A DNA stretch of 63,888 nucleotides, filler included. It is 8 parts of 8 records of this genome, joined end to end, with 100 filler letters (N's around TTAATTAATTAA, not from the genome) between each part and the next. Parts side by side here need not be neighbours in the genome. Positions count along the whole stretch, not along the records: positions 1 to 12,849 come from DRR723986_44296; 7 more parts are not named here. The stretch is one strand, 5' to 3'. The notes beneath the pieces are model-generated. The model was not told where the DNA came from. It saw only the letters and a list, made by a program, of their open reading frames with translations, and ran no database searches. The first letter of the stretch is position 1, and each line of letters starts with the position of its first letter. This document shows, piece by piece, positions 1 to 57,844 of this stretch. A program made the position numbers and the translations under genes.

Positions 1-247
1 AGTGGCCTCAATTCTTAAGTTTAACATATCATACATTGTTTTGACACCTTACTGGTAGAAAAGCGGATGTACATAATTTTATATTTGGTTTTGTTAAATC
101 AGTTTCTACCTGAAAAGAACAATAAGTACTAGGGGAATTGATTAACTCTAGCTTTGAGACTACTTCGGTCACCCGTCTTCGGTCTTCGAGCCAGCAAATC
201 AAAGAAAATAAGTATACTGACATCATTGCAAACAATCATATTCAACA

Positions 248-3028
248 CTAATCAAATTCTAATATCTGAATTTTCCCGTCCAAGCCAGATGGCATAGTTT
301 TCCAGTTACTGGCATCAAAGGGTTTGTAATCTATATTCACAAAGTTGATTTCGTGGTAATTTCTCCATTCGATTCCATTTCTATCCAGATAGCGAATGCT
401 ATTAGCCATTAGGTTTGCAACTTCTACTTTGATTGAATTTTTGCCATTTTTCAAGTGCTCGCTGACATCCAATTGGTACGGAATGCTCCAGATATTCCCT
501 GCGTACTCTCCATTAATCCATATTTTGGCAGATTCATAGACCTTATCAATTGTCAATAAGTATTGCTTGCCTTCTACCTTTTTAAATTCAAATTCACTGG
601 TATAGCTGGCCTGACCAGAGAAGTCATCCGCCTCTGCATCACTTGTACTTGTCCATGGTTCGATTGTTTCCATGGTTTGTGCTGCTGGTAGCTTTGGCTG
701 GCCTTGGGTAAAGGTAAGTTTCCAGTTATTCGAAATGTTCGTGCTTTTTGATGATTGGGAATAGTCAGGCCAAGCAGGAATAGCTAAGTTTACTTTATCT
801 TCAAAAGTCTTCAGAAAAATAGATTCCCCTGATTTTAAATAGATGGAAACAGTTGTGTTTTCTGAATTATATGTGGTAGGAAGTGTACCCGTTTTTCCGG
901 TCAGTGGGTCCATTATCATCACTGTTCCTGCTTTCGCATTTAGAGAAATGCTTTGATAAATAGTATTTGCACTGTGATTTACCAAGAAATAATAGGTGCC
1001 GTCGGCTACTTTTCTACGAATAAAATCAAGTCCAGAATCCACCAACTTTTCTCTATTGATCTTTAAGCTTTCCAAAGCTGCACGAGAGTCTCTATTCAGA
1101 ATGACCTGGCCTTTTCCAAAGTTTACTTTTCCATCTTGAAATGCTATTGAAGCCCATAATGCATCAAATTCCGCTTGTTTTGACTTTTGGTCAGAATGAT
1201 AGCCTGGGATTGATTTTGGCTTAGATTGAAAGATAACTTTCGCACCACTTTCAGCTAATTTCAAGATATCCTTCAATGTCTCCAAAGGCATAAACTCAGT
1301 CTCAGGAATGAGTAACACTTTCGCTGAGTTAGTAGGAGAGGTTTGAATGTGCCCATCTTTCACGGATGAATTTGCTATCATTTCATCCGAGATAAAATCG
1401 AGGGAATAACCTGCTTCCATTAAGCTTTTCGACTGCTTGTAAAACTCCGTTGGATGCAGCCATTCATCGACAGCATGAACCGTGATCATTTCCATTTTGC
1501 CCTTTGGCTCCGCCCAAACGTCGTAAACTGGCCAGTAAACCAGCAATTCATTGTCTGCTTGACCTGCTTGCAAAATGGCTTGTGATCTAGCGATGTAATC
1601 ATTAAAACCTTTAAAATGTGGCCAAAGACTGTTTTGTTGCGTCAGATTCAGCGATGCATAAAAAAGCCAACCTGGATAGGAGACATCTTCAGGACTGTAA
1701 GTGACCCCATGATAGAAAATGTGATTTACCCCTGCCAAAAACGCCTGCTCCACTTCAGGTTTCATCTGGGAAAAGGAAGATTTGAAATGCTCTCCCAACC
1801 AAGTGAAAGTCTCGGAGGAAACTAGATTTTTTCCAGTCAAATGAGCTGCGGAAGATGCAAACTTCAGCATAATAGGATCAGGATCTACATTTCTGATATC
1901 TGCGCTGTCTCTCCTCAGTCCAGGAATAGGGAAGTAACTGGATCCGAAAGTCTCACATTCCGGAATATCAACTGCGGCATAGAGATCAAGAAGGTTTCCC
2001 GGTGATCCATGTGCTTGATTTTTGGTGAGTTTGGATTGTTCATGTGCCCAATCAGTCCAGTTCTTAGTAAAATTATTCAATAGGAGATCATTGATCGTTT
2101 CCCTATAATCTGACTTGACTCTTCGAACTAGCTCTGTGTTTTTCTCACTTTCTAGATACGGAAGAAATTCTTTCAAATCATAACCTCTTAGCTTCTGGAA
2201 CTCTTCAAAAAGGTTGCCTGTATAATCCGCACCATAGACTTCAAAGCTGTCGTTATAAAAAGAACGGAAACCGTAATTCTTTCCTGCAAATGCCTTTTCA
2301 AAATATGAATTGTAAGAATCCACAGCAGGTTTACTGAAGTGATCTAGCGTGAAGCCAACGCCGCCTGGAGCTGCACGTTTTACCATTTGACCTGTTTTAT
2401 CTAGAAAAATAGCCTTGATATGCCAAGCTCCGGCTTCGTTCCAATCAAGTTGCCCACTAGCATTTACATACGAGGTGATATCCTTTGAATTTAAGTTTTT
2501 GTCGTAAGCCATTACTGCTACAAGCTCAGGATCATATTGATTTTCTCTTTTCTTTTGGAATGTAATGGGAGTTGACAAAGGTTGACCATCTACCTTTTCA
2601 TAATCCTGAATCACCATACGAGTTGCGGCATTCTCCACACTTACTTGGGGTCCACCATATGGCCAGCCCGTGCCTTGGGTCATATCAACTCCCATTCCAA
2701 GTGAATGAGCCTTCGTGACCGTAAAGTCTAACATGCTCAGCCAGTCTTCAGAAAGAAAGTCTATGTATCGATCTTCATAGCCCTTTGCGCCATAGATAGG
2801 AGCGATTTCCACACCGCCAAGTCCTGCGGCATTGTACGTTTCCAGCAGTTTGGAGAGATTCTTTTCATCTACAGCATTTCCCATCCACCACCAGCGAGTC
2901 CAAGGTTTGGCAGTTTGTGTGATCTCAGGCCAATCGCTAGAAACTGGGGCTTTTTGCTCTATAAGTTGAAAGCCAAAGAATAGTAAAATAGGGAAAAGTA
3001 AAAGCAGGTATCTTGATTTTGAAAGCAT
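248..3028 (-). CDS. Glycoside hydrolase family 106 (alpha-L-rhamnosidase-like), secreted
   Basis: KPWTRWWWMGN, GLGGVEIAPIYG, GTGWPYGGP, QAHGSPGNLLDLYAAVDIPECETFG motifs; C-terminal GH2-like sugar-binding domain; likely start MLSKSRYLLL at 3028 with signal peptide; next to rhaM. Confidence 0.85.
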   Translation of the reverse strand: MLSKSRYLLLLFPILLFFGFQLIEQKAPVSSDWPEITQTAKPWTRWWWMGNAVDEKNLSKLLETYNAAGLGGVEIAPIYGAKGYEDRYIDFLSEDWLSMLDFTVTKAHSLGMGVDMTQGTGWPYGGPQVSVENAATRMVIQDYEKVDGQPLSTPITFQKKRENQYDPELVAVMAYDKNLNSKDITSYVNASGQLDWNEAGAWHIKAIFLDKTGQMVKRAAPGGVGFTLDHFSKPAVDSYNSYFEKAFAGKNYGFRSFYNDSFEVYGADYTGNLFEEFQKLRGYDLKEFLPYLESEKNTELVRRVKSDYRETINDLLLNNFTKNWTDWAHEQSKLTKNQAHGSPGNLLDLYAAVDIPECETFGSSYFPIPGLRRDSADIRNVDPDPIMLKFASSAAHLTGKNLVSSETFTWLGEHFKSSFSQMKPEVEQAFLAGVNHIFYHGVTYSPEDVSYPGWLFYASLNLTQQNSLWPHFKGFNDYIARSQAILQAGQADNELLVYWPVYDVWAEPKGKMEMITVHAVDEWLHPTEFYKQSKSLMEAGYSLDFISDEMIANSSVKDGHIQTSPTNSAKVLLIPETEFMPLETLKDILKLAESGAKVIFQSKPKSIPGYHSDQKSKQAEFDALWASIAFQDGKVNFGKGQVILNRDSRAALESLKINREKLVDSGLDFIRRKVADGTYYFLVNHSANTIYQSISLNAKAGTVMIMDPLTGKTGTLPTTYNSENTTVSIYLKSGESIFLKTFEDKVNLAIPAWPDYSQSSKSTNISNNWKLTFTQGQPKLPAAQTMETIEPWTSTSDAEADDFSGQASYTSEFEFKKVEGKQYLLTIDKVYESAKIWINGEYAGNIWSIPYQLDVSEHLKNGKNSIKVEVANLMANSIRYLDRNGIEWRNYHEINFVNIDYKPFDASNWKTMPSGLDGKIQILEFD

Positions 3029-3038
3029 AGAAAATTGA

Positions 3039-3356
3039 TTATTTGAGGTCGAAAACGTTTGGAAGTTCAACAGAAATAGGAGAGTTGTCAGGATTAGTTT
3101 CCATGATGTCAGCCATGTATTTCCACCAACGCTGGACGATCTCGGTACTTCCAAGATCCTGAGAATTTGCTTCTCCTGCTATTACCTGAAAGGCAAAAAG
3201 GTTAGAAGTTTCTCTATCCAAAAATATCTGATAATCAATGATTCCTGTGTCTTTGAGTAAAGTGACCAATTCAGGCCAAATTTCACGATGTCTTCTTTCG
3301 TATTCTTCTTCAAAACCTGGAATCAGTTTCATTCGAAAGGCTAGTTTTTGAGGCAT
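3039..3356 (-). CDS. rhaM: L-rhamnose mutarotase
   Basis: AFRMKL..G.EEEY.RRH.EIWPEL, WW.YMADIMETNPDNSP signature; 105 aa. Confidence 0.93.
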   Translation of the reverse strand: MPQKLAFRMKLIPGFEEEYERRHREIWPELVTLLKDTGIIDYQIFLDRETSNLFAFQVIAGEANSQDLGSTEIVQRWWKYMADIMETNPDNSPISVELPNVFDLK

Positions 3357-3418
3357 TTTGGGTTGAGTTTCTACGTTACAAAAAAGAAAGGATTAGGCGT
3401 TATAGAATTAAAAGTTAT

Positions 3419-4918
3419 TCATTTTTTTAAGAAGTCTTTAAGTGCTATTCCGTTTAGACTTTCTATGGCATTTGCCACAATTTTGGCATTCAATTTAGCT
3501 CCTGCTTCTATAGTATGTGTGTGATCGGTATCGTTAAAATAATGGGCTTTTACATATTCCTCACCCTGTTCATTATATTGATCAGCTACTAATTGATTGA
3601 GATCGATAAAGGCGGTTTCGGTATCTTCGGCAACTTGTTTTGCCCAAAGTCCATAATCATTTTCAGCAGTGACAACCTTGCCATCTTTCCAGCTATTTCT
3701 AGGAATTAGCGAGCAAACAATAGGAGTGACGCCTTTGGCTTTTGCTGCCAAAATCATCTGGCGTAAATACTGGCCATAGGAATAGACTGTTTCCTGACTT
3801 TTTGTGATTGGGTTGTAGATGTTTTCAGCTTCCAAACCAGCACTTTTGATTGTACCGCGAGCACGGGCTTCATCATCCAGCGGGCTTGAATCATTGTGAC
3901 CAAATTGCATGATCAGGTAATCTCCCGGTTCCAATTTATCCAAAACCTTCTGCCACATGCCGTAAGTCTGAAAGGTACGGCTACTGGTTCCACCTAACGC
4001 ATGGTTTTGCACTTTGATCTTTTCTCCATCAAAATATGGAGCGATAAAATCTCCCCATCCCCAAAGTCCTCCCGCGCCATCGCCTTGTCCATTTTTCACA
4101 GTAGAATCGCCAATTAGAAATAGCGTGGGCTTATCTTTTTTTAAATAATCTTTCAAATCGCAATCCTTCAGGTCCTTTAAACCTTGGGTAAGCGACCAAG
4201 CATTGATTCTTGCCCCAGCTTCATTGGTATGCGTGTGATCTCTTTCAAAAAGTCCTTTTACGACTTCCTGACCCCATTTGTCATATTGATCTGCAACTAT
4301 TGAATTGAGGTCAATGAATGGAACGCCATGTCTTCTTGCTGCATCTTTGGCCCATTTCCCAAAGTCGTGATTGGCTCTTTCTACATCTCCATCCTGGAAT
4401 TTATTGCGTGGAATCATGGATGCCACAATTGGAGTTGCGCCTTTAGCTTTGGTATCGGTGATGAACTTTTCAAGATACCAGCCATAGGTATGTACAGTTT
4501 CTTTTGTGCCATCTGGCCAGATGAGTTCCTTGGTTTCATCATCCATTCCGCGTAACACACCTCTATAACCAGCCTTTGTGGTATCAGGAACAGAACCTTC
4601 GTTATGACCAAATTGCATAATTACGTAGTCCCCAGGCTTTAAGGTTTCTAGAACTTTTTCCCATCGGCCTTCTTTGATAAAGGTTCGGGTACTTCTGCCA
4701 GCCATGGCTTGGTTGCTTACTTCTAGTTGAGTACTATCAAAAAACTCCTGAAGTACATTTCCCCAACCTCGTTGCAAATTGCCTTCTCCACCATTTCTAA
4801 CTGTAGAATCACCAATTAAGTAGAGAGTTTTCTTCTCATCTTTGTATTGATGAAAGGCAGTAAAAAGTAGTGCTAGAACAAGGATTGAAAAGGTTTTGAG
4901 GGCTGCTTTACTATTCAT
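3419..4918 (-). CDS. Rhamnogalacturonan acetylesterase (CE12) with two tandem SGNH domains
   Basis: Two copies each of LIGDSTV, G(R/T)S(T/S)RTF, QFGHN and D(H)THT; signal peptide. Confidence 0.88.
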   Translation of the reverse strand: MNSKAALKTFSILVLALLFTAFHQYKDEKKTLYLIGDSTVRNGGEGNLQRGWGNVLQEFFDSTQLEVSNQAMAGRSTRTFIKEGRWEKVLETLKPGDYVIMQFGHNEGSVPDTTKAGYRGVLRGMDDETKELIWPDGTKETVHTYGWYLEKFITDTKAKGATPIVASMIPRNKFQDGDVERANHDFGKWAKDAARRHGVPFIDLNSIVADQYDKWGQEVVKGLFERDHTHTNEAGARINAWSLTQGLKDLKDCDLKDYLKKDKPTLFLIGDSTVKNGQGDGAGGLWGWGDFIAPYFDGEKIKVQNHALGGTSSRTFQTYGMWQKVLDKLEPGDYLIMQFGHNDSSPLDDEARARGTIKSAGLEAENIYNPITKSQETVYSYGQYLRQMILAAKAKGVTPIVCSLIPRNSWKDGKVVTAENDYGLWAKQVAEDTETAFIDLNQLVADQYNEQGEEYVKAHYFNDTDHTHTIEAGAKLNAKIVANAIESLNGIALKDFLKK

Positions 4919-5135
4919 TTGTTAGAAGGGTTTGCAATAACAATCGCTGTTTTTTACTGACCCAATGTAAGGAAGAATAGTTGACCAACCTGCCTGTGCT
5001 TACCTTTTAAAGGTGTATTTGATCGAATTGCCTATAAATTTGATTGTAAACAGTTGAAACCTAAAAAGAAAATTCTCTGCACGAACCTGCGAAATAAATC
5101 TGAGCAGGTCTGCGGGAAAATATCAGCTAACTATG

Positions 5136-6209
5136 CTAAAATGGAAATATCAGCAAGGCGTGCTGTCCGACAGTATTAAAATCACGCCATACCCGATTCA
5201 ATTCTGTGTGAGTTTTTGCAGCTTCCAAACCGGAGAATGGATAAAGTTTTCCATTTATCTCTCTGCACTGTTGGGTAAGTTTACGGCTGATTTTGCTGAC
5301 TTTCTTTAATCTTGAATCAGAGATTTTGCCCTTTTGCTCCAGTTCTTCCCAAGATGAGTTCACTTGACTATAAAATTCATCTCTGAGTTTTTGAAGCTTT
5401 TTATCTTGTTTAGTTAGAAGATCCTGGAAGTAGCGAAGGTGTTTTTTATCATACTTTCTATACTCATGTCTTTTCCAGAAAGACTGTTCTATCAATTCTT
5501 TTAGGTGTTTGGAAATGCCTAGAATATTTGCCGCCAGTGTAGTTTCAGCAAATTGCAAAAATGGATATTGGTAAACTGAAGCTTTCAATTGAGCTTTGTT
5601 GGGAAGGATTTCAAAGCAGCGACTTAGAGGAACGCTTAAGTTCTCACATTTAAAAGCATGACTTCCGGTTGCGATCATTCCCATGTAATTCCAGCCGTCA
5701 AGAATCTCCACGTCTTTTCTATCCAATACAAAGGCTTTTACGACTGGCTTTCCTTTTTTATCGAGAAGCGCTTTTCCATTTTCATAAATCTCACAGTTGG
5801 CAGTAAGATGTGTGGCATGTAAAGCTCCCGAAGCATAGGTCCAGCTTCCCGAAATCAAGTAGTTTTCTCCGATTTTATCGGCTTTTCCTCCTACAAAGCC
5901 ACTTCCAGCTAGACAGAGTTTTTCGTCAGGAAAAATGTCTTTGCGCACTGACTCATCCATAAATCCCACAAACCAAGCTGCGCCTGCGCATAGAGTCACG
6001 GTCCAGCCCAAACTTCCATCCAGCTTTGCCAATTTCTCTTCGATTTTTAGCGCTTCGGGTAAGGTGCATTCCAGGCCTCCTAGATCTTTTGGAACGAAAA
6101 GCTTAAAGTACTTTTTAGCATAAATTTCTGTCAGCCACTCTATTGGAAGCTGTCCCAATTTTTCTGCTTCCTGGGCAAGTTCCTGATTAAACAGTTTTGA
6201 GTTTTGCAT
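5136..6209 (-). CDS. Acyl-CoA dehydrogenase-fold flavoprotein (HsaA/group D monooxygenase-like)
   Basis: FVPKDLGGLE, DGSLGW, ISGSWTYASG, W..MGMIATGSH, LNRVWRD...GQH; overlaps the pnuC stop by 23 nt. Confidence 0.75.
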   Translation of the reverse strand: MQNSKLFNQELAQEAEKLGQLPIEWLTEIYAKKYFKLFVPKDLGGLECTLPEALKIEEKLAKLDGSLGWTVTLCAGAAWFVGFMDESVRKDIFPDEKLCLAGSGFVGGKADKIGENYLISGSWTYASGALHATHLTANCEIYENGKALLDKKGKPVVKAFVLDRKDVEILDGWNYMGMIATGSHAFKCENLSVPLSRCFEILPNKAQLKASVYQYPFLQFAETTLAANILGISKHLKELIEQSFWKRHEYRKYDKKHLRYFQDLLTKQDKKLQKLRDEFYSQVNSSWEELEQKGKISDSRLKKVSKISRKLTQQCREINGKLYPFSGLEAAKTHTELNRVWRDFNTVGQHALLIFPF

Positions 6210-6813
6210 TGGGTTGGTCCAGTTCTTTTTTCCAATCGAAGTAGCCGAAAATAGCTACGATGAAAAGGAAAATGGTAAGTAATGAGATTAAAATCAAGTC
6301 TTTATGGAAGAGCAAGGGAATGGCAATAATATTCGAAACGTTCAGCCAAATCCAATTTTCCAGCTTTCTTTTGGCCAAAAGCCACATACCAGCCCAGGCC
6401 GTTGAGGAAACAAAAGCATCTACTACAGGAACATCCGAATCTGTAAAAGTGGTCAGCATAAAATAAAGAAAGCCCCACCCCAGAATAGCGATTGCCCAAG
6501 TAATTTTCTGTTCTTTTGCCGTACTTCTGGAGATGGAGGAAGCTCCGCTGGCAGAGCGATTTTTCCACATAGTCCAGCCATAAATACTCATGACGAGGTA
6601 GTAGGCATGGAGTAAAGTTTCTGCATAGAGTTTGGCATCCACGAGCAGAAATCCTGAGCACAGAATTCCAATAATTCCAGCAGGGTAGAGTAGTACATTA
6701 TTTTTGCGAGCGAGAAGCACTTCAGTGACTCCAAAACTTACAGCAATCCATTCCAGTAAACTGGTGGCTTTGATCTGCTCGGCGAGCAGACTCAGGTCAA
6801 TCGATACTAACAT
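6187..6813 (-). CDS. pnuC: PnuC-family vitamin transporter, probably thiamine-specific (PnuT) given the upstream TPP riboswitch
   Basis: Multi-TM 208 aa; YGW..W, DAF, LLAKRKLENWIW, GYFDWKK. Confidence 0.9.
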   Translation of the reverse strand: MLVSIDLSLLAEQIKATSLLEWIAVSFGVTEVLLARKNNVLLYPAGIIGILCSGFLLVDAKLYAETLLHAYYLVMSIYGWTMWKNRSASGASSISRSTAKEQKITWAIAILGWGFLYFMLTTFTDSDVPVVDAFVSSTAWAGMWLLAKRKLENWIWLNVSNIIAIPLLFHKDLILISLLTIFLFIVAIFGYFDWKKELDQPNAKLKTV

Positions 6814-6856
6814 TTGAATAACGTTTTATGATTATTCAAAAAAGGGAGAACAGTAA

Positions 6857-6950
6857 TCTAATCCCTACGTCGGCATTACCCGGATCAGGTGCTCCCGATA
6901 AATCGGGATGGGTATGATCTCAGCCCGTAACTTTTAGGGCACCCCTTAAT
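6857..6950 (-). ncRNA. TPP (thi-box) riboswitch
   Basis: Minus strand reads GGGGTGCCC...GGGCTGAGATCATACCC...CACCTGATCCGGGTAATGCCGACGTAGGGA, with all hallmark TPP elements (UGAGA, ACCUGAU, UAAUG, CGUAGG); ends about 45 nt upstream of pnuC. Confidence 0.93.
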
Positions 6951-6958
6951 TGATGAGT

Positions 6959-6966
6959 CAAATATA
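6959..6966 (-). promoter_or_regulatory. Bacteroidota housekeeping promoter -7 element (TAnnTTTG)
   Basis: TATATTTG on the minus strand immediately 5' of the riboswitch. Confidence 0.6.
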
Positions 6967-7567
6967 GAATTATTATTTCGAGAGCTAGAAGATTTGATGT
7001 TGAAGCTGCTTGAATTTAATTATTTGTATATCCGATTTTCTAACAATAAGGAGGCAAAAGCAAAGCAAGATATGGTACTTAGTAAGGGTCTTTCGTTAGA
7101 AAAATATGTGCTATCGGTTGCACTTCAATTCTTATAATCCAGTGAAAATCATCTCTTTTTTTTATTCTAAACAAATACTCTCAAACTAGGAATCTACATT
7201 TCTATTAGGGTTGACAAGTCAAAAACTCCAGTCTGAGCAATCCTTCTTTGAAACAAAAGGCCAAAAAAAAATTGCCACGGTTTTTATGCATCCTTACAAT
7301 TTTTTTAATAAAAGTGAGCGTAAAAGGTTCAATTGTGTGCTTTTTCAAACTATAAAAGAAGATTCGATTGATATTTTTTATTTAAAGTAGTTTATGGAAG
7401 GGCTAGATCTGCTCACTCTACCTAAACCACTTGAAAGCTAGATATTCTGTTAAACTAAGATTACTTAAAATTTCATTGGCTGAAATTGCTCTCGGCATTA
7501 GTTACTACTGGGAAAACTAAAAATAATTTGATTTTGATTTGGAGGCAAAAAAAATACGTGTTATAAT

Positions 7568-7591
7568 GCAATCGATTGCGCAATCGATAGG
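7568..7591. promoter_or_regulatory. Tandem LacI-family-like operators upstream of susC
   Basis: Perfect palindrome GCAATCGATTGC followed directly by GCAATCGATAGG; related GTGCTATCGGTTGCAC at 7108-7123. Confidence 0.6.
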
Positions 7592-7629
7592 GCGTAGTTT
7601 TAATTTTAACACTAAACCTAAATTTTATC

Positions 7630-10600
7630 ATGGTACAAAATTTACCCAAAATTCCGCCGTCTCTAGAATCTCCTCCACGGAGTAATTCTTTAAAAAAATG
7701 GTATTTGGTATTCCTATTAGGAATTTGCTTTTCTATTTCAGGTTTTGCTCAGCAGACAGTTACCGGGACGATAATTTCATCAGATGATGGACTTGCTTTA
7801 CCCGGTGTTTCAATTCTAATTAAGGGGACCACAACTGGAACCACGAGTGATGTTGATGGAAAGTATTCGTTATCTGTACCGGACGAAAAATCCGTATTAG
7901 TTTTTTCCTTTATTGGCTACAACTCTCAGGAAGAGGTGGTAGGATCAAGGTCAATTGTAGATGTTGAGCTTGGTGTAAACATCACCGAGCTGGAGTCTGT
8001 GGTAGTAGTAGGGTATGGTACACAAAAAAGAGCCGATGTAACAGGAGCTATTGCGGGAGTGGATAGTGAAATCATCACTGAAAGAGGAACTACTAGCGCT
8101 ATTCAGTCTTTACAAGGAACAGTGGCTGGTGTTCAGGTCAGTAATAGCACAGGTCGATTAGGAGATGGTTTTAATATGACCATTCGTGGTAATAATTCAC
8201 TTGCGGGTTCATCTCCGCTCTATGTAGTCGATGGAGTGATTACTAGTGGGATTGATTTTTTAAATCCAAATGATATTGAAAAAATAGAAGTATTAAAGGA
8301 TGCGTCTTCGGCTGCTATCTACGGTTCTAGAGCTGCTGGTGGTGTAGTGATAGTACAAACTAAGACTGGAACCACATCACAGAATAAGACAAATGTTTCG
8401 TTCGAGACTTTTTACGGTGTGAAGACTCCTGCCAGATTGCCAGAAATGATGAGCTTGGAGCAATGGAGGGATTATCATTATGCTGCGTACTTGGGAACTA
8501 CCAAAAATGGCGCTGGTATGACCCCTGCTGATTATGAAAATGTGGTGATAGGGGGCTCAAATGCAGTCTTGAAGGAAAGATTTGATAATCTGGAAGGCTA
8601 CGACTGGTATGATGGTGTGCTACAAAACGGTCTTCAGACAAACAGCCACCTATCTGTTTCGCATAGAAATGGTGCATCCACTTACAATTTGGGTATAGGT
8701 TATCAAAATGAAACTGGGAATTTGAAGAATGAGTCTTTAGATAAGTACACCTTCAACATAAATATCAACCAAAGTATAAACGATAAGCTAACCGCTGGAG
8801 CGAATATGGCTTTTTCTTTTGGTACAAATCAAAGAGGGAGTAGCATAGCAATGCAGGAAGCATTTAGGCTAAATCCATTTTTAACTCCCTATGCAGTTGA
8901 TGAAAATGGAAATGAGATAAGTGGAGAGCTCTTCCCACAGCCAGGTAAATTGACTTACCCTGATGGGTCATTTGCAGTAAATAAGACAAGTACATACAAC
9001 CCCCTTTTGGAGATAGCCAATACAAGTGATGAGACACGCACTATACGTGGAGTTGGGAATGCTTTCTTACAATATGATGCATTAGAATGGTTAAGCTTGA
9101 AATCTACATTTTCTGTTGGATTGAATAATAATAGAAGAGGATTATACTGGGGAGCAATGACCAATACTGGTATCAGCAATGGTAATTTACCATCTTCCGA
9201 ACTGGAATTTGTAGATAAATTGAATTACACTTGGGATAACCAACTTAATGTAAATCAATTTTTTGGCGATCATGCGTTCAACTTTCTTGCATTACAAAGC
9301 ATTTTTGTGGATCGCACTGAAACTGCCTACATGGGCTCGACTCAGCAGCCTTTCGAAACAGAGTTTTACAATGTAGGATCAGGGTTACAGTCTACTTATT
9401 CTTTAGGAAATTCATTTCGTAAGAATCAGTTAGCTTCTTTTGCTCTACGCTTAAATTATGCCTTAAAGGATAAATATCTAGTTACAGTTTCCAATAGATG
9501 GGATGGATCTTCTCTATTATCAGAAGGAAACAAGTGGCAATCTTTTCCTTCAGTTGCTTTAGGCTGGAGATTGAGTGAAGAGGACTTTTTGGTTAATTCC
9601 GGCACTGTTTCAGATTTGAAATTGAGAGCGGGATATGGCACAGTCGGTAACAACAACGTGGCTCCGTATACTACGGTAAATACACTGACCAATCAGACTT
9701 ATTATGATTTTAATGGCACTACTGCTAATGGTTGGGTACAGAATTCACTTGCCAACAAATCCCTTACATGGGAGAAAACTACAGAAATTAATCTAGGTGT
9801 GGACTTTGGTTTTGCTAATAACCGCGTTACAGGTAGCATTGATTGGTATGATAGACTGTCTGACGAATTACTGGTAAGTCAAAAGCTTCCGCTGGAAATT
9901 GGTTTTAGTAACATCAGATCAAATGCTGCATCTGTGAAAAACACCGGGGTTGAGGTTATGTTGAATACAATAAATCTGGAAACCAACTTAGTGACTTGGT
10001 CCACCATGTTCACTTTTACCAAAAACACCAATACAATAGAATCTATTTATGGTCAATCTGAAACTGATGACGTAGGAAATGGCTGGTTCATTGGTGAGTC
10101 AATTGATTCACATTACAACTTTGTGTATGACGGCGTATGGCAAGCTAATGAAGATGCTGCCGCTTACAATCAGAAAGAAGGGGAGGCTAAAGTAGTTGAT
10201 GTAAATAATGATGGAAAAATCAGTCCAAATGATGATAGAGTTATTTTAGGATCATCTAATCCTTCTTGGACAGGAGGATTGATTTCTAGACTACAAGTTG
10301 GTGCCTTTGATATGAATATTGCTTTGGCTACTCAACAAGGAGTTTTGGCTTTCAGTGATTTTCACAAAAATTTCACCGATGTGAAAGATAGAGGTAGACA
10401 AAAAGCAAATATCGGTGAGTTTTATGTTCCTGAAAACAGTGTAGGTGTACCTACTCAATATACCAATAAATATCCTCAGCCACGAGCAGAGGGCCAGTAT
10501 TGGGGAAATGGAATAGCTTATTATAAGGATGCTTCATTTGTGAAAATCAATAACATATCCCTAGGCTATTCCATTCCACAAAGCTTGCTAAGCAAGATCA

Positions 10601-10752
10601 ATGTGCAGAGCCTGAGACTTTATGTAAATGTGCTCAATCCATTCACTTTCACAGATTACGATGGATGGGATCCGGAGTGGGCAGAGGCTTCCTTGGGCGT
10701 AGGGCGAGTGAGCAGCATAACTACCCAATTTGGTTTAAGCTTAAAGTTTTAA
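7630..10752 (+). CDS. susC: SusC/RagA TonB-dependent transporter
   Basis: VVVVGYGTQK, NPNDIEKIEVLKDASSAAIYGSRAAGGV, LTWEKT, C-terminal LSLKF. Confidence 0.96.
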   Translation: MVQNLPKIPPSLESPPRSNSLKKWYLVFLLGICFSISGFAQQTVTGTIISSDDGLALPGVSILIKGTTTGTTSDVDGKYSLSVPDEKSVLVFSFIGYNSQEEVVGSRSIVDVELGVNITELESVVVVGYGTQKRADVTGAIAGVDSEIITERGTTSAIQSLQGTVAGVQVSNSTGRLGDGFNMTIRGNNSLAGSSPLYVVDGVITSGIDFLNPNDIEKIEVLKDASSAAIYGSRAAGGVVIVQTKTGTTSQNKTNVSFETFYGVKTPARLPEMMSLEQWRDYHYAAYLGTTKNGAGMTPADYENVVIGGSNAVLKERFDNLEGYDWYDGVLQNGLQTNSHLSVSHRNGASTYNLGIGYQNETGNLKNESLDKYTFNININQSINDKLTAGANMAFSFGTNQRGSSIAMQEAFRLNPFLTPYAVDENGNEISGELFPQPGKLTYPDGSFAVNKTSTYNPLLEIANTSDETRTIRGVGNAFLQYDALEWLSLKSTFSVGLNNNRRGLYWGAMTNTGISNGNLPSSELEFVDKLNYTWDNQLNVNQFFGDHAFNFLALQSIFVDRTETAYMGSTQQPFETEFYNVGSGLQSTYSLGNSFRKNQLASFALRLNYALKDKYLVTVSNRWDGSSLLSEGNKWQSFPSVALGWRLSEEDFLVNSGTVSDLKLRAGYGTVGNNNVAPYTTVNTLTNQTYYDFNGTTANGWVQNSLANKSLTWEKTTEINLGVDFGFANNRVTGSIDWYDRLSDELLVSQKLPLEIGFSNIRSNAASVKNTGVEVMLNTINLETNLVTWSTMFTFTKNTNTIESIYGQSETDDVGNGWFIGESIDSHYNFVYDGVWQANEDAAAYNQKEGEAKVVDVNNDGKISPNDDRVILGSSNPSWTGGLISRLQVGAFDMNIALATQQGVLAFSDFHKNFTDVKDRGRQKANIGEFYVPENSVGVPTQYTNKYPQPRAEGQYWGNGIAYYKDASFVKINNISLGYSIPQSLLSKINVQSLRLYVNVLNPFTFTDYDGWDPEWAEASLGVGRVSSITTQFGLSLKF

Positions 10753-10875
10753 ATAAAATAGATATGAAATCGAGCATGATGATAGACTCCACACAAGGGA
10801 TGAATATCAGCTTCACGAGATCCTTCCGAGAATCGGGAAAGGCTATCTGACAATAAAAAAATCTATTATAAAGAG

Positions 10876-12501
10876 ATGAAAAATATACTTTCAATTTTCG
10901 CAATAGCCCTTATTCTAGTCAACACAGGTTGTGCTGATTTTCTAGAAGAGGACAACAGATCAAATGTAACAGCCGAAGAATTTTATGCAACTGAAGAAGG
11001 GTATGCAGCATTGATCAATTCTAATTATTCGGCTTTGAGAAATATCTATGGAAAAGCTCCATGGATGTTTATGAGTGGTACTGACCTTTACGAAGAGGGC
11101 AGATCACCTGAACCGCAGGGTTTGAGCAAATACTCACAATTGAATTCCTCTTCAGAGGGTGTGGATTTCCTATATACTAATAGTTACAAAGCTATACAGT
11201 TAGCAAATACTGCCATCTATTATGCTGATAAGACTGCACCATCTCCAAGCATTGCTCAGTATGTAGGAGAGGTGAGATTCCTAAGAGCCAATGCCTATTT
11301 TCTTCTTGTTCAATCTTATGGTGGAGTAGGGATAATCACTGATTTCATTGCGGAACCTATTCTCTCTTTTGACAGATCCTCAGCTGAAGAAGTCTATTCA
11401 TTGATAATTTCTGAATTGGAAATAGCTATGAATGAAGTTTCTTCTGGGGATTACACCGGAAGAGTAAATAGAAGAGCAGTAGAAAACTTGTTAGCAAAAG
11501 TACACCTAACCCGAGCCTATGAGGATTTTGCTGCAAGTGATGATTTCGCAAAAGCTGCAAGTTATGCAGAGAATGTGATTGCTGGACAGGGTTTGAATTT
11601 GTCTTCAGAAGAACTATGGACTCCTGGAAATGACATGAATGAAGAAGTGATCTTCTCCGTTCAGTTTAGTCCTGGATCTATCAGTTCAGATCCATCCGAA
11701 ATTGGTAATCAACAGCAAAACTATAATGGGCCATATTTAGGAGGTTCTGAAGTAGCTGGGAATGCGCCATACAAGACCTATAATTTACTTCCAACTCGCT
11801 TTGCATTGGATTTATTCGAAGAAACTGACGAAAGATGGTATTCAACTTTCATGACAGAGATGTATGTCCGATACTATGACTACTATGATGTCGCTGATAA
11901 AAGCAGCTTGACAGTTCGAGATTTCTATGAACCAAGATGGTTTACTGCCCAAGACAGTATTGACTACATGGCTGCTCATCCTACGGCTATCTATCATTCC
12001 TACGGCACAACAGACCCGGTGGGTGGAATTATTTCTGGAGATAGAGCCACTATGATTGTGAAGAAATTTGATGATCCAAATTCACTTTTCGCAGGTTCAG
12101 GAAATGGCTCGAGCACCAGAGATTTCATAATTTCTAGATTGGCAGAAACTTACTTGGTTGCAGCAGAAGCCTATTTGGGTCTTGGGGAAGCGGCTAAAGG
12201 ATTAGAAAAATTAAATGTAGTGAGACAAAGAGCAGGAGTGGCCGATGCAACGATGTCAGATTTTGACCTTGATTACATTCTTGACGAAAGAGCAAGAGAA
12301 TTACTTGGTGAAAATCATCGTTGGTTTGATCTAAAGAGAACTGGTAAGTTGATTGAGCGGGCATCTGCTTACAATAGCTGGATCACACCTGCCAATTTCC
12401 AAGGCGCTGGTGGAAATCTGAAGATTCTCAGACCAATTCCTCAGGCAGCATTGGATTTGAACCAAAACAAGGATTTCCCACAAAATCCTGCGTACGATTG
12501 A
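10876..12501 (+). CDS. susD: SusD/RagB lipoprotein
   Basis: Lipobox TGC; EVRFLRA, RLAETYL.AAEA, ILDERARELLGENHRWFDLKR, QNPAY. Confidence 0.95.
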   Translation: MKNILSIFAIALILVNTGCADFLEEDNRSNVTAEEFYATEEGYAALINSNYSALRNIYGKAPWMFMSGTDLYEEGRSPEPQGLSKYSQLNSSSEGVDFLYTNSYKAIQLANTAIYYADKTAPSPSIAQYVGEVRFLRANAYFLLVQSYGGVGIITDFIAEPILSFDRSSAEEVYSLIISELEIAMNEVSSGDYTGRVNRRAVENLLAKVHLTRAYEDFAASDDFAKAASYAENVIAGQGLNLSSEELWTPGNDMNEEVIFSVQFSPGSISSDPSEIGNQQQNYNGPYLGGSEVAGNAPYKTYNLLPTRFALDLFEETDERWYSTFMTEMYVRYYDYYDVADKSSLTVRDFYEPRWFTAQDSIDYMAAHPTAIYHSYGTTDPVGGIISGDRATMIVKKFDDPNSLFAGSGNGSSTRDFIISRLAETYLVAAEAYLGLGEAAKGLEKLNVVRQRAGVADATMSDFDLDYILDERARELLGENHRWFDLKRTGKLIERASAYNSWITPANFQGAGGNLKILRPIPQAALDLNQNKDFPQNPAYD

Positions 12502-12528
12502 GTTAATTGTTAAGGGGTTTATAATTAG

Positions 12529-12561
12529 AAAATCCGTACCAGTTGGTGCGGATTTTTTTTT
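12529..12561 (+). terminator. Rho-independent terminator after susD
   Basis: AAAATCCGTACC-AGTT-GGTGCGGATTTT followed by a T tract. Confidence 0.8.
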
Positions 12562-12849
12562 AAACCCAACAGCTAAGAAGTTATGTCATATCTCTTAATA
12601 AGAGATTGGAATTCAGGTTTCTGTACTTTTTGTTTAGTGCAACTTTGTGGGAATAAATGTGAGAGGATAATGATTTTAGACATGTATTTCGCTATTCTTA
12701 AAGAGATAAGTTTACTTTTTAAAAAACCTATCAATTGGTGTTTTACCATGGATTTTACCTATTGTTACTAATTTGAAAATTGGTTCAAACCGTAAAAAAA
12801 TGCCAATTCGTATTAAATTAATGTGATTATCCGCAATGATGCCAGTTGC

Positions 12850-38387: not shown

Positions 38388-38716
38388 TCCCGGGCGAGAC
38401 ATTTCCTGCCGAAGGGTCGCTGACGCTAAACGCCGGTCGCAGCGCCCAGATGGTGTTGGTGGCCAATACCGGCGACCGCCCAGTACAGGTGGGCAGCCAC
38501 TACCACTTTGCCGAAGCAAACCCGGCGTTGGAATTTGATCGCTATGCAGCCTTGGGCAGGCGGCTGGACATTCCGGCGGGCACTGCCGTCCGCTTCGAGC
38601 CCGGACAGCGTCGACAGGTGATGCTGGTACCCTACCTGGGACGACGACATATCTATGGCTTTAATCAACATATCATGGGAGCGCTGAAAGATGCCGGGCA
38701 AGATAAGTCGGAGTGA
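38384..38716 (+). CDS. ureB: Urease beta subunit
   Basis: [35 protein letters not shown]. Confidence 0.96.
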
Positions 38717-39710
38717 TTATGCTGCCATGTTCGGCCCAACTGTCGGCGACAGGGTGCGACTTGCGGATACCGATCTGATTATCGAGGTCGAAAAAGACCT
38801 GATTGTGGAACGCGCCACAGCGGCACACTTCAGCGCCACAGGACTGCGGGACGATGTCTATGGAGAAGAGGTGAAGTTTGGCGGTGGCAAAGTCATCCGC
38901 GACGGAATGGGGCAATCCCAGATCACGCGCGCCCAAGGCGCGGTGGACACTGTCATTACCAACGCACTGATCGTCGATCACGCTGGCATCTATAAGGCTG
39001 ATGTCGGCCTGAAAGACGGGCGCATCCACAAGATTGGCAAAGCCGGGAATCCTGACACCCAACCGGGCATCGACGTCATTGTGGGCCCCGGAACCGAGGT
39101 AATCGCGGGCGAAGGACGCATTCTGACGGCAGGCGGCTTTGACAGTCATATCCATTTCATCTGTCCGCAGCAGATCGAGGACGCGCTGCATTCCGGCCTG
39201 ACCACCATGCTGGGTGGCGGCACTGGCCCTGCCCACGGCACGCTGGCCACCACCTGCACCCCCGGCCCATGGCATATCGGGCGCATGATGCAGGCGGCTG
39301 ATGCCTTTCCGATGAATCTTGCCTTTGCAGGTAAAGGCAACGCATCGCTGCCAGCAGCCCTTGAAGAACAGGTGCTTGGCGGCGCCTGCGCTCTGAAGCT
39401 GCACGAGGACTGGGGCACCACGCCTGCTGCCATCGACTGTTGTCTGTCGGTCGCTGATGATCTGGACGTTCAGGTGATGATCCACACCGACACGCTGAAC
39501 GAATCCGGATTTGTCGAGAATACAGTGGCGGCAATTGAGGGTCGCACGATCCACGCCTTTCATACCGAGGGCGCGGGGGGCGGCCATGCCCCGGACATCA
39601 TCAAGATTTGCGGCGAAGAGCATGTGTTGCCGTCCTCTACCAATCCCACCCGGCCTTTCACAGTGAACACCCTGGAGGAACATCTCGACATGCTGATGGT
39701 CTGCCACCAT
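38691..39710 (+). CDS. ureC: Urease alpha subunit (3'-truncated by contig end)
   Basis: [39 protein letters not shown]. Confidence 0.97.
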
Positions 39711-39810
39711 NNNNNNNNNNNNNNNNNNNNNNNNNNNNNNNNNNNNNNNNNNNNTTAATTAATTAANNNNNNNNNNNNNNNNNNNNNNNNNNNNNNNNNN
39801 NNNNNNNNNN
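39711..39810. other. Artificial contig linker
   Basis: N-run with TTAATTAATTAA. Confidence 0.99.
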
Positions 39811-57372: not shown

Positions 57373-57477
57373 CGCCCCGTCTCCTGAGGATTGTTTTGCG
57401 TCTCGGCCCTTGACCTGCGCGCGTGGTCAAAGCATGTAACCATGGGAACCGCAACATTTATTCAACAGGGGGCCGCC

Positions 57478-57744
57478 ATGGCTTTTGAACTTCCTGATCT
57501 TCCTTATGCACATGACGCTCTGGCATCCAAGGGCATGTCAGCAGAAACGCTGGAATTCCACCACGATCTGCACCACAACGCTTATGTGACCAACGGTAAC
57601 GCGGCAATCGCCGGAACCGAGTGGGAAAACAAGTCGTTGGAAGAGATCATCACTGGCACCTACGATGCCGGTTCGGTCGCTCAGAACGGCATCTTTAACA
57701 ACATCAGCCAGCTCTGGAACCACAACCAGTTTTGGGAAATGATG
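57478..57744 (+). CDS. sodB: Fe/Mn superoxide dismutase (3'-truncated)
   Basis: MAFELPDLPY, HHDLHH.AYV, FNN..Q.WNH..FW. Confidence 0.92.
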
Positions 57745-57844
57745 NNNNNNNNNNNNNNNNNNNNNNNNNNNNNNNNNNNNNNNNNNNNTTAATTAATTAA
57801 NNNNNNNNNNNNNNNNNNNNNNNNNNNNNNNNNNNNNNNNNNNN
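57745..57844. other. Artificial contig linker
   Basis: N-run with TTAATTAATTAA. Confidence 0.99.

Follow-up and report, generated by a model that had tools for sequence, protein, structure and literature searches.

We analysed a 63,888-nucleotide (nt) stretch of DNA (the window, taken at its full length; its positions 1 to 12,849 come from DRR723986_44296), in which positions 5136 to 6966 hold a thiamine pyrophosphate (TPP) riboswitch aptamer, a pnuC-family gene and the gene of a 357-amino acid (aa) flavoprotein, for which the name FL is used in this work. Since the pnuC-FL pair recurs in distantly related Bacteroidota, it is probably the sign of a step in the acquisition of vitamin B1 (thiamine) that has not yet been described. 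Our proposal, which in our judgement has about an even chance of being right, is that the region is a TPP-repressed unit producing a PnuT-type facilitator together with FL, and that FL oxygenates a thiamine-related compound for salvage or detoxification. The -7 promoter, the aptamer, pnuC and the 357-aa open reading frame (ORF) overlapping it by 23 nt had been reported in an earlier note on this DNA, and each of the four was found on the minus strand in the place given there. The elements of the operon are the following:

6959..6966, minus strand: putative -7 promoter motif TATATTTG, fitting TAnnTTTG
6844..6956, minus strand: TPP riboswitch aptamer, RF00059 match of 40.7 bits
6814..6839, minus strand: 9-bp hairpin UUGAAUAAU-N8-GUUAUUCAA, from the minimum free energy (MFE) and centroid folds of the leader
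6187..6813, minus strand: pnuC-family facilitator of 208 aa, PnuT-type by context (PF04973, TIGR01528)
5136..6209, minus strand: FL, 357 aa, predicted oxygenase component of a two-component group D flavin monooxygenase with the acyl-CoA dehydrogenase (ACAD) fold (PF08028, AlphaFold2 (AF2) model with Foldseek, profile)

The two ORFs have bases 6187-6209 in common. Since the proteins from window bases 1-28000 are 98-99% identical to their counterparts in Algoriphagus winogradskyi and uncultured Algoriphagus, the operon sits in Cyclobacteriaceae DNA. The guanine plus cytosine (G+C) content of this part of the window is approx. 39-43%.

The RF00059 match runs from 6956 to 6844, spans the model over its entire length (positions 1-105) and has an E value of 7.6e-6 when 3 kb are searched. 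Its score is under the Rfam gathering score of 54.3, thus the element is missed by a default scan. The orthologous aptamer of the closest genome, the 98%-identical A. winogradskyi (G001), reaches 55.0 bits and is over the gathering score. In an alignment of 18 leaders the TPP core, CUGAGA and ACCUGAUCCGG.UAAUGCCGGCGUAGGGA, is nearly invariant, and compensatory changes on both sides were observed in 11 of the 21 predicted pairs. The core consensus that serves as the mark of membership (CUGAGA; ACCUGAU...CGUAGGGA) is present in the TPP leaders. Because of the score of the ortholog, the near-invariant core and the covarying pairs, the element of the window is, judging from the sequences, a genuine TPP aptamer, and repression of the operon by TPP is predicted.

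The putative promoter motif TATATTTG ends 3 nt before the aptamer. It is the sole example on the minus strand, within 4800-7700, of TAnnTTTG, which we take to be the Bacteroidetes -7 consensus; from the density of this motif across the window (0.29 per kb per strand) approx. 0.8 would be expected in that interval. A scan for TAnnTTTG gave no further -7 motif from the aptamer through to the 3' end of the FL gene, and a sigma-70 and terminator scan gave no more sites than were found in shuffled sequences. Co-transcription of pnuC and FL is predicted from this layout. The last base of the 9-bp hairpin directly precedes the AUG of pnuC, hence the hairpin is a possible translational expression platform as far as the MFE and centroid folds can indicate; the stability of the whole leader was not higher than that of shuffled sequences (z -1.13).

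The product of the pnuC ORF matched PF04973 over the whole profile (170.7 bits, positions 1-175 of 175) and TIGR01528 with 73.9 bits (cut-off 42.45). Two features of the context distinguish PnuT. TPP-riboswitch control was found in the window and likewise in all ten FL-linked loci sampled across the phylum (see below), and an adjacent gene for thiamine pyrophosphokinase (TPK) was absent, its downstream position being occupied by FL. The PnuC of the window is PnuT-type by its TPP-controlled context, with thiamine as the predicted cargo.

In order to follow the pair in close relatives, one genome per species was taken, which gave 48 FL loci of 59-99% identity, nearly all from Algoriphagus, with some from Haliscomenobacter and Saprospiraceae and a few metagenome-assembled genomes labelled otherwise. 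The pnuC gene lies directly upstream of FL in 36 of these loci, in most of them with the identical 23-nt overlap. The TPP core pattern was matched in 31 of the 36 pnuC-linked loci, and in two of the five misses the available sequence begins inside pnuC, so that it holds no upstream DNA.

The same question was asked of 401 evenly drawn Bacteroidota genomes, with E<=1e-20 as the threshold for an FL homolog. Such a homolog was present in 25 genomes, and in 10 of these pnuC stands immediately upstream on the same strand, the identity of FL ranging from 98% to 29% and the two genes overlapping by up to 23 nt or lying up to 35 nt apart. An RF00059 match was found upstream of every one of the ten pairs (55.0, 39.2, 41.6, 40.3, 34.7, 41.8, 52.8, 47.4, 38.5 and 32.0 bits; the 38.5-bit match precedes a TonB-PnuC-FL operon). 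The neighbours of the linked loci vary (ParC/MsrA, Mqo, a DEAD helicase, or TonB with PafA and ThiE), therefore conservation is limited to the pnuC-FL pair itself. With these counts the homolog-context check foreseen in the earlier note came out in favour of an enrichment of FL behind TPP-controlled pnuC, in the close relatives as well as in the phylum sample.

The reverse search, starting from the PnuC of the window, gave matches in 166 of the 401 genomes. Only 12 matches are at least 47% identical, and 10 of them are FL-linked and preceded by the aptamer. Twenty other PnuC loci (40-53% identity) were fetched, one of which was omitted from the aptamer search for its size; none of the 19 searched had a TPP aptamer at E<=0.01, and their sampled neighbours were NadR-like AAA_28, TsaE or a convergent TPK. 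A quick maximum-likelihood tree of 67 rows was built after five rows with a match shorter than 300 aa and one duplicate had been dropped; it was midpoint-rooted and has several long branches. All 43 linked rows fall within one clade of 60 (support of 96 in the SH-like approximate likelihood ratio test, SH-aLRT), the deepest branches of which are linked.

Some of the distant loci carry more than the pair. In the genome G385 the operon has the order TPP-TonB-PnuC-FL, with PafA and a gene of the ThiE family coming after it, and in G333 a TonB receptor under TPP control is the direct neighbour of FL. The G385 locus (L093:2835-10676) is the fullest cluster observed: after FL comes a gap of 437 nt, then PafA, the ThiE-family gene and a TPK-like protein, an arrangement which suggests dephosphorylation of thiamine monophosphate (TMP) or TPP in the periplasm ahead of import. 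In G198 (L081 / L096:6085-6973) the FL gene, which stands behind a TPP-controlled pnuC, is itself split into two pieces of 151 and 119 aa; this genome also carries a second PnuC, beside a PF04263 TPK.

A number of observations weigh against a thiamine-related role of FL. In 12 of the 48 close loci FL is kept and both the switch and pnuC are gone. Synteny shows that the site, MacB-GMC-(DUF805)-[TPP-pnuC]-FL-GlgB or ...-FL-GDSL, is conserved there minus the bracketed segment; in one locus of this type (L022) FL starts 25 nt past the GMC oxidoreductase gene. In four sampled genomes of this type the PnuC matches are only 36-41% identical, and each genome has a single TPP aptamer, which precedes the ortholog of the TonB receptor. 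Selection consequently maintains FL even where PnuT and TPP control are missing, and its retention after the loss of both means that its role does not strictly depend on them. The aptamer is genuinely absent from three pnuC-linked loci (L027, L032 and L036). In the phylum sample 15 of the 25 homolog genomes are unlinked to pnuC, nine of the ten aptamer matches are under the Rfam gathering score (the weakest, of 32.0 bits, has an E value of 0.022), a second group of the tree consists of seven distant homologs, all unlinked, and the quick tree requires 4-9 changes of the linkage label, gains or losses. Neither in the operon nor among the Pfam matches to the window ORFs was a flavin reductase gene found; it is possible that a general reductase is encoded elsewhere. 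Leads drawn from gene context can also resist testing: knockouts of OarX and FmnO, two enzymes encoded behind TPP riboswitches, had no phenotype with five candidate compounds, according to the accessible part of the report (PMC11223231).

These points give substance to the explanation that FL has a job unrelated to thiamine, for instance the hydroxylation of aromatic or sulfur compounds, its linkage to pnuC being a historical accident preserved by operon inertia. The survival of FL after the precise loss of TPP-pnuC in several Algoriphagus lineages, the unlinked distant clade and sampled genomes, and the profile matches to the window ORFs, which include no further thiamine gene, are all as this explanation would have them. 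However, the two genes stay adjacent while the identity of FL falls from 98% to 29%, that of PnuC falls from 99% to 47% and all flanking genes change, with junctions that overlap or leave less than 40 nt. The deepest branches of the 60-row clade are linked, and G385 and G333 add further thiamine-related neighbours. By established reasoning in comparative genomics, neutral hitchhiking seldom outlasts such a divergence, and we consider the thiamine-unrelated explanation rather unlikely, while giving it real weight. The suggestion of the earlier note that FL is a new step of thiamine salvage therefore stands in part: gene context and fold speak for it, and the retention of FL in loci devoid of the switch and pnuC speaks against it.

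The thiamine genes of the host genomes bear on the kind of compound FL might act on. Three TPP aptamers are present in G001, the closest genome; they precede a lone TonB-dependent receptor, an operon of methyltransferase, AIR-synthase-like and ThiE-like genes, and pnuC-FL. ThiC, ThiG, ThiD, ThiM and TenA were not found in G001, G305 and G385. A canonical ThiL (307-323 bits) and a ThiE-family gene were present in all five genomes tested, the latter lying in or beside a TPP-controlled unit in G001, G305 and G385. These three genomes look like auxotrophs for the whole vitamin. Since the five genes are missing, salvage of free thiazole or pyrimidine is unlikely in G001, and a substrate resembling whole thiamine would fit FL better and is more plausible than such fragments. 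The thiazole or pyrimidine degradation product that the earlier note had put forward as a possible substrate is for the same reason improbable there.

A separate observation concerns the second of these units. In G001 (L055:5512-8098, minus strand) a 69-bit TPP riboswitch precedes the operon of an S-adenosylmethionine (SAM) methyltransferase, the AIR-synthase-like and the ThiE-like protein. The AIR-synthase-like protein is ThiL/HypE/SelD-like (55-65 bits) and the ThiE-like one is sub-threshold; the operon may represent a further unexplained thiamine-related pathway.

PF04263, the TPK family, was found in only one of five FL-linked genomes tested. In the phylum sample it is present in 193 of the 401 genomes but in only two of the ten FL-linked ones, and at least 19 sampled genomes have a PnuC match and a PF04263 gene no more than 1 kb apart. 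The scarcity of PF04263 made FL itself a candidate for the replacement of TPK. This candidate was rejected, since a divergent TPK-fold family is encoded elsewhere in these genomes. Its members are 187-204 aa long and start with MSSHH..KQEPA, and no profile of Pfam or NCBIfam matches the family; it is present in G001, G181, G261, G401, G305 and G385 and was not found in G197. The following members were located:

L171:1501-2115 (G001): TPK-like family member
L163:6308-6868: TPK-like family member
L093:2835-3407, minus strand: TPK-like family member

The TPK-like gene adjoins the ThiE-family gene in the TPP-controlled units of G305 and G385 and lies elsewhere in G001. NCBI names the relatives of this family thiamine pyrophosphokinase, and the top matches of its AF2 model (predicted local distance difference test, pLDDT, 79.9) were TPK structures only (2omk, with a template modelling (TM) score of 0.69-0.70). 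Thiamine trapping is thus probably covered by this modelled TPK-like protein. Because the family escapes the profiles, surveys based on PF04263 undercount TPK in Bacteroidota.

The position of FL nevertheless invites the idea that it provides the pull for the facilitator, docking on or behind PnuT and binding or altering the cargo, and so takes the operon slot of TPK. In gut Bacteroidetes the place after pnuT belongs to tnr3 (accessible part of PMC5613172), and it is FL that stands there in our operon; the 23-nt overlap suggests coupled translation of pnuC and FL; and Pnu transporters, PnuT among them, are described as working by facilitated diffusion with metabolic trapping and hence as depending on downstream metabolism (accessible part of PMC5749112). 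Against this, trapping is possible without FL as the genomes encode a TPK-fold protein elsewhere, oxygenation gives no TPP, and FL persists where PnuT has been lost. We regard such a pulling role as highly improbable.

The assignment of FL as an oxygenase, on which the proposed thiamine-related role is built, comes from its family matches, its modelled fold and its residues. FL matched PF08028 (Acyl-CoA_dh_2) with 28.2 bits (cut-off 22.7), and its second Pfam match, PF02771 (Acyl-CoA_dh_N), was weak and sub-threshold. No other Pfam family appeared in FL at E<=0.01, therefore the middle and C-terminal families of ACADs, presumably PF02770 and PF00441, are unmatched. The best NCBIfam matches were monooxygenases without exception, each under its equivalog cut-off (score/cut-off: HsaA 95/450, C2-HpaH 64/650, DszC 27/850, SfnB 34/431). 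The AF2 model of FL, made from an alignment of 86 diverse relatives, had a pLDDT of 96.9. Foldseek placed it closest to HsaA (TM 0.87), Rv3094c (TM 0.86) and XiaF and C2-HpaH (0.83-0.84), the values for true ACADs being 0.71-0.78. The profile of the FL family gave 198 bits with Rv3094c and 150 with HsaA.

The flavin mononucleotide (FMN) contacts and the proton donor of Rv3094c, given in the accessible part of PMC9904262 as W80, G113, S138, W174, S184, T347 and H351, align to W69, G102, S127, W173, S183, T346 and H350 of FL. Among the 86 sequences of the family W69 and W173 never vary, G102, S183, T346 and H350 hardly do, and S127 is the majority residue only. Residues of the pocket and the gate are smaller in FL (W115, F221 and F352 of Rv3094c correspond to G104, A221 and A351), which suggests a roomier site. 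Because of the fold, the profile matches and the kept flavin and catalytic residues, we take FL to be the oxygenase of a two-component flavin monooxygenase of group D, with a predicted enzymatic activity; it is an ortholog of no characterised enzyme.

Profiles and AF2/Foldseek agree on this point with the earlier note, which had seen in FL a group D monooxygenase-like protein and not a true ACAD; the nearest relatives turned out to be Rv3094c and HsaA. The public label of the family is corrected by this result, since NCBI, UniRef and the ESM Atlas (the latter with automatic names) call FL relatives acyl-CoA dehydrogenase. That FL is an ordinary acyl-CoA dehydrogenase, as these names and the Acyl-CoA_dh_2 and weak Acyl-CoA_dh_N matches would have it, is hardly credible in view of the unmatched middle and C-terminal ACAD families, the monooxygenases among the best NCBIfam matches, the higher TM scores with monooxygenases than with ACADs and the kept proton-donor histidine H350. 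The family counts approx. 228 cluster representatives at E<=1e-30, and the wider set of homologs numbers 1029. No fusion of FL was found at E<=1e-20 among longer proteins of 626-2000 aa, and in the six representatives of 392-483 aa a check for additional domains at the N-terminus gave the FL match only and no PnuC match.

Taken together, a thiamine-related role of FL would work as follows. The -7 promoter, the aptamer, the PnuT-type facilitator and the translationally coupled FL would form one TPP-repressed unit, in which low cellular TPP would open the switch and PnuT and FL would be made together. A separately encoded, TPP-controlled TonB receptor would carry a thiamine-type molecule over the outer membrane and PnuT would permit its diffusion across the inner one. 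An unlinked flavin reductase would supply FL with reduced FMN or flavin adenine dinucleotide (FAD), giving the C4a-hydroperoxyflavin, with which FL would oxygenate a thiamine-related small molecule arriving by the same route. The predicted substrate class is that of a modified or damaged whole-thiamine congener, which would be returned to usable vitamin, or of a toxic analogue, which would be disarmed. Phosphorylative trapping would be performed by the divergent TPK-fold protein encoded elsewhere.

A more specific form of the proposal appears doubtful at present, namely that FL serves oxygen-dependent salvage in aerobic Bacteroidota, S- or C-oxygenating a whole-thiamine congener imported by PnuT and thereby regenerating the vitamin. 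On chemical grounds, the removal of sulfur from a thiazole-2-thione and release from a thiol or ring-opened adduct are examples of suitable reactions, and the oxidative removal of thiazole-2-thione sulfur can be likened to the S-oxygenation of a thioamide by Rv3094c. If the salvage form is true, an environmental derivative of B1 counts as vitamin for complete auxotrophs. The routes of thiamine salvage and damage repair are poorly known, and many aquatic and soil Bacteroidota appear to be full B1 auxotrophs. A conserved enzyme tied to an importer and a sensor of B1 is a lead toward a new reaction of salvage or of defence against anti-vitamins, and should such a reaction take place, the range of compounds to be regarded as bioavailable B1 in soils and waters would change.

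Other features of the window are as follows. Genes for polysaccharide use flank the operon (window 248-4918 and 7630-12501), with a SusC/SusD pair on the upstream side, in divergent orientation, and genes for a GDSL esterase and a GH106 rhamnosidase on the downstream side; none of these genes is thiamine-related. Beyond 30 kb the G+C content rises to approx. 52-59% (window 28000-63888). At least two ORFs of this part are apparently truncated: that of urease alpha (38691-39758) breaks off after 355 aa, and that of a superoxide dismutase (57391-57792) matches the N-terminal domain of its family only. Given the jump in G+C and the shortened ORFs, the window may join differently derived DNA, or short contigs. 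An Rfam match to 5_ureB_sRNA (111 bits, 38894-39183, minus strand) lies antisense to the urease alpha ORF (38691-39758, plus strand) and is probably conserved urease coding sequence and not a true small RNA.

Among the known systems the OMthi-pnuT-tnr3 operon is the closest in layout. In the accessible part of PMC5613172 these three genes are given as a single operon in most of the gut Bacteroidetes genomes analysed, and in B. thetaiotaomicron (BT2390, BT2396-97) tnr3 is placed immediately downstream of pnuT. Our operon shares with it the TPP aptamer over a PnuC-family inner-membrane thiamine facilitator and, elsewhere in the genome, a TPP-controlled TonB receptor. The difference is that a predicted flavin monooxygenase and not TPK is joined to pnuC and that the TonB receptor has a unit of its own; moreover, the PnuC of the window has an identity of only approx. 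33-35% with those PnuC copies which stand beside same-strand PF04263 TPK genes. TPP-controlled PnuT operons are thus already known, and the monooxygenase after pnuT is a variant arrangement.

On the side of the enzyme, the nearest solved relative of FL is Rv3094c (PDB 7f70/7f72/7f74), which the accessible part of PMC9904262 describes as a two-component flavin monooxygenase of ethionamide S-oxygenation. The two proteins have the flavin contacts and the catalytic histidine in common. They differ in that their identity is only approx. 20%, three bulky residues of Rv3094c (W115, F221 and F352) become G, A and A in FL, a putative reductase gene adjoins Rv3094c whereas none adjoins FL, and the context of Rv3094c is not thiamine-related. 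HsaA, C2-HpaH, XiaF and DszC resemble FL in the ACAD fold and in their oxygenation chemistry dependent on reduced flavin, a chemistry which in FL is predicted; FL is far under the equivalog cut-offs of HsaA, C2-HpaH and DszC and is approx. 30 residues shorter. Medium-chain acyl-CoA dehydrogenase (MCAD) and butyryl-CoA dehydrogenase have the three-domain fold in common with FL, but their TM scores are the lower ones quoted above (0.71-0.78), the Pfam domains specific to ACADs are unmatched in FL, and its residues fit a monooxygenase.

The literature searched, to which subscription journals and RegPrecise/SEED did not belong, contained no paper in which an ACAD-fold protein or a monooxygenase of group D is tied to PnuT or to a TPP riboswitch. 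The accessible part of PMC11223231 describes two enzymes encoded downstream of TPP riboswitches in Firmicutes, Actinobacteria and Proteobacteria, OarX, a short-chain dehydrogenase/reductase (SDR), and FmnO, an FMN-dependent monooxygenase; PnuT, Bacteroidetes and acyl-CoA-dehydrogenase-fold proteins are not mentioned in that part. They differ from FL in belonging to other phyla and apparently to other protein families. The likeness is that OarX and FmnO, as described in the same part, are redox enzymes controlled by TPP riboswitches, clustered with genes of thiamine transport or salvage, and candidates for salvage or detoxification. As far as the accessible part of that report goes, OarX and FmnO are the nearest conceptual precedent for the FL operon.

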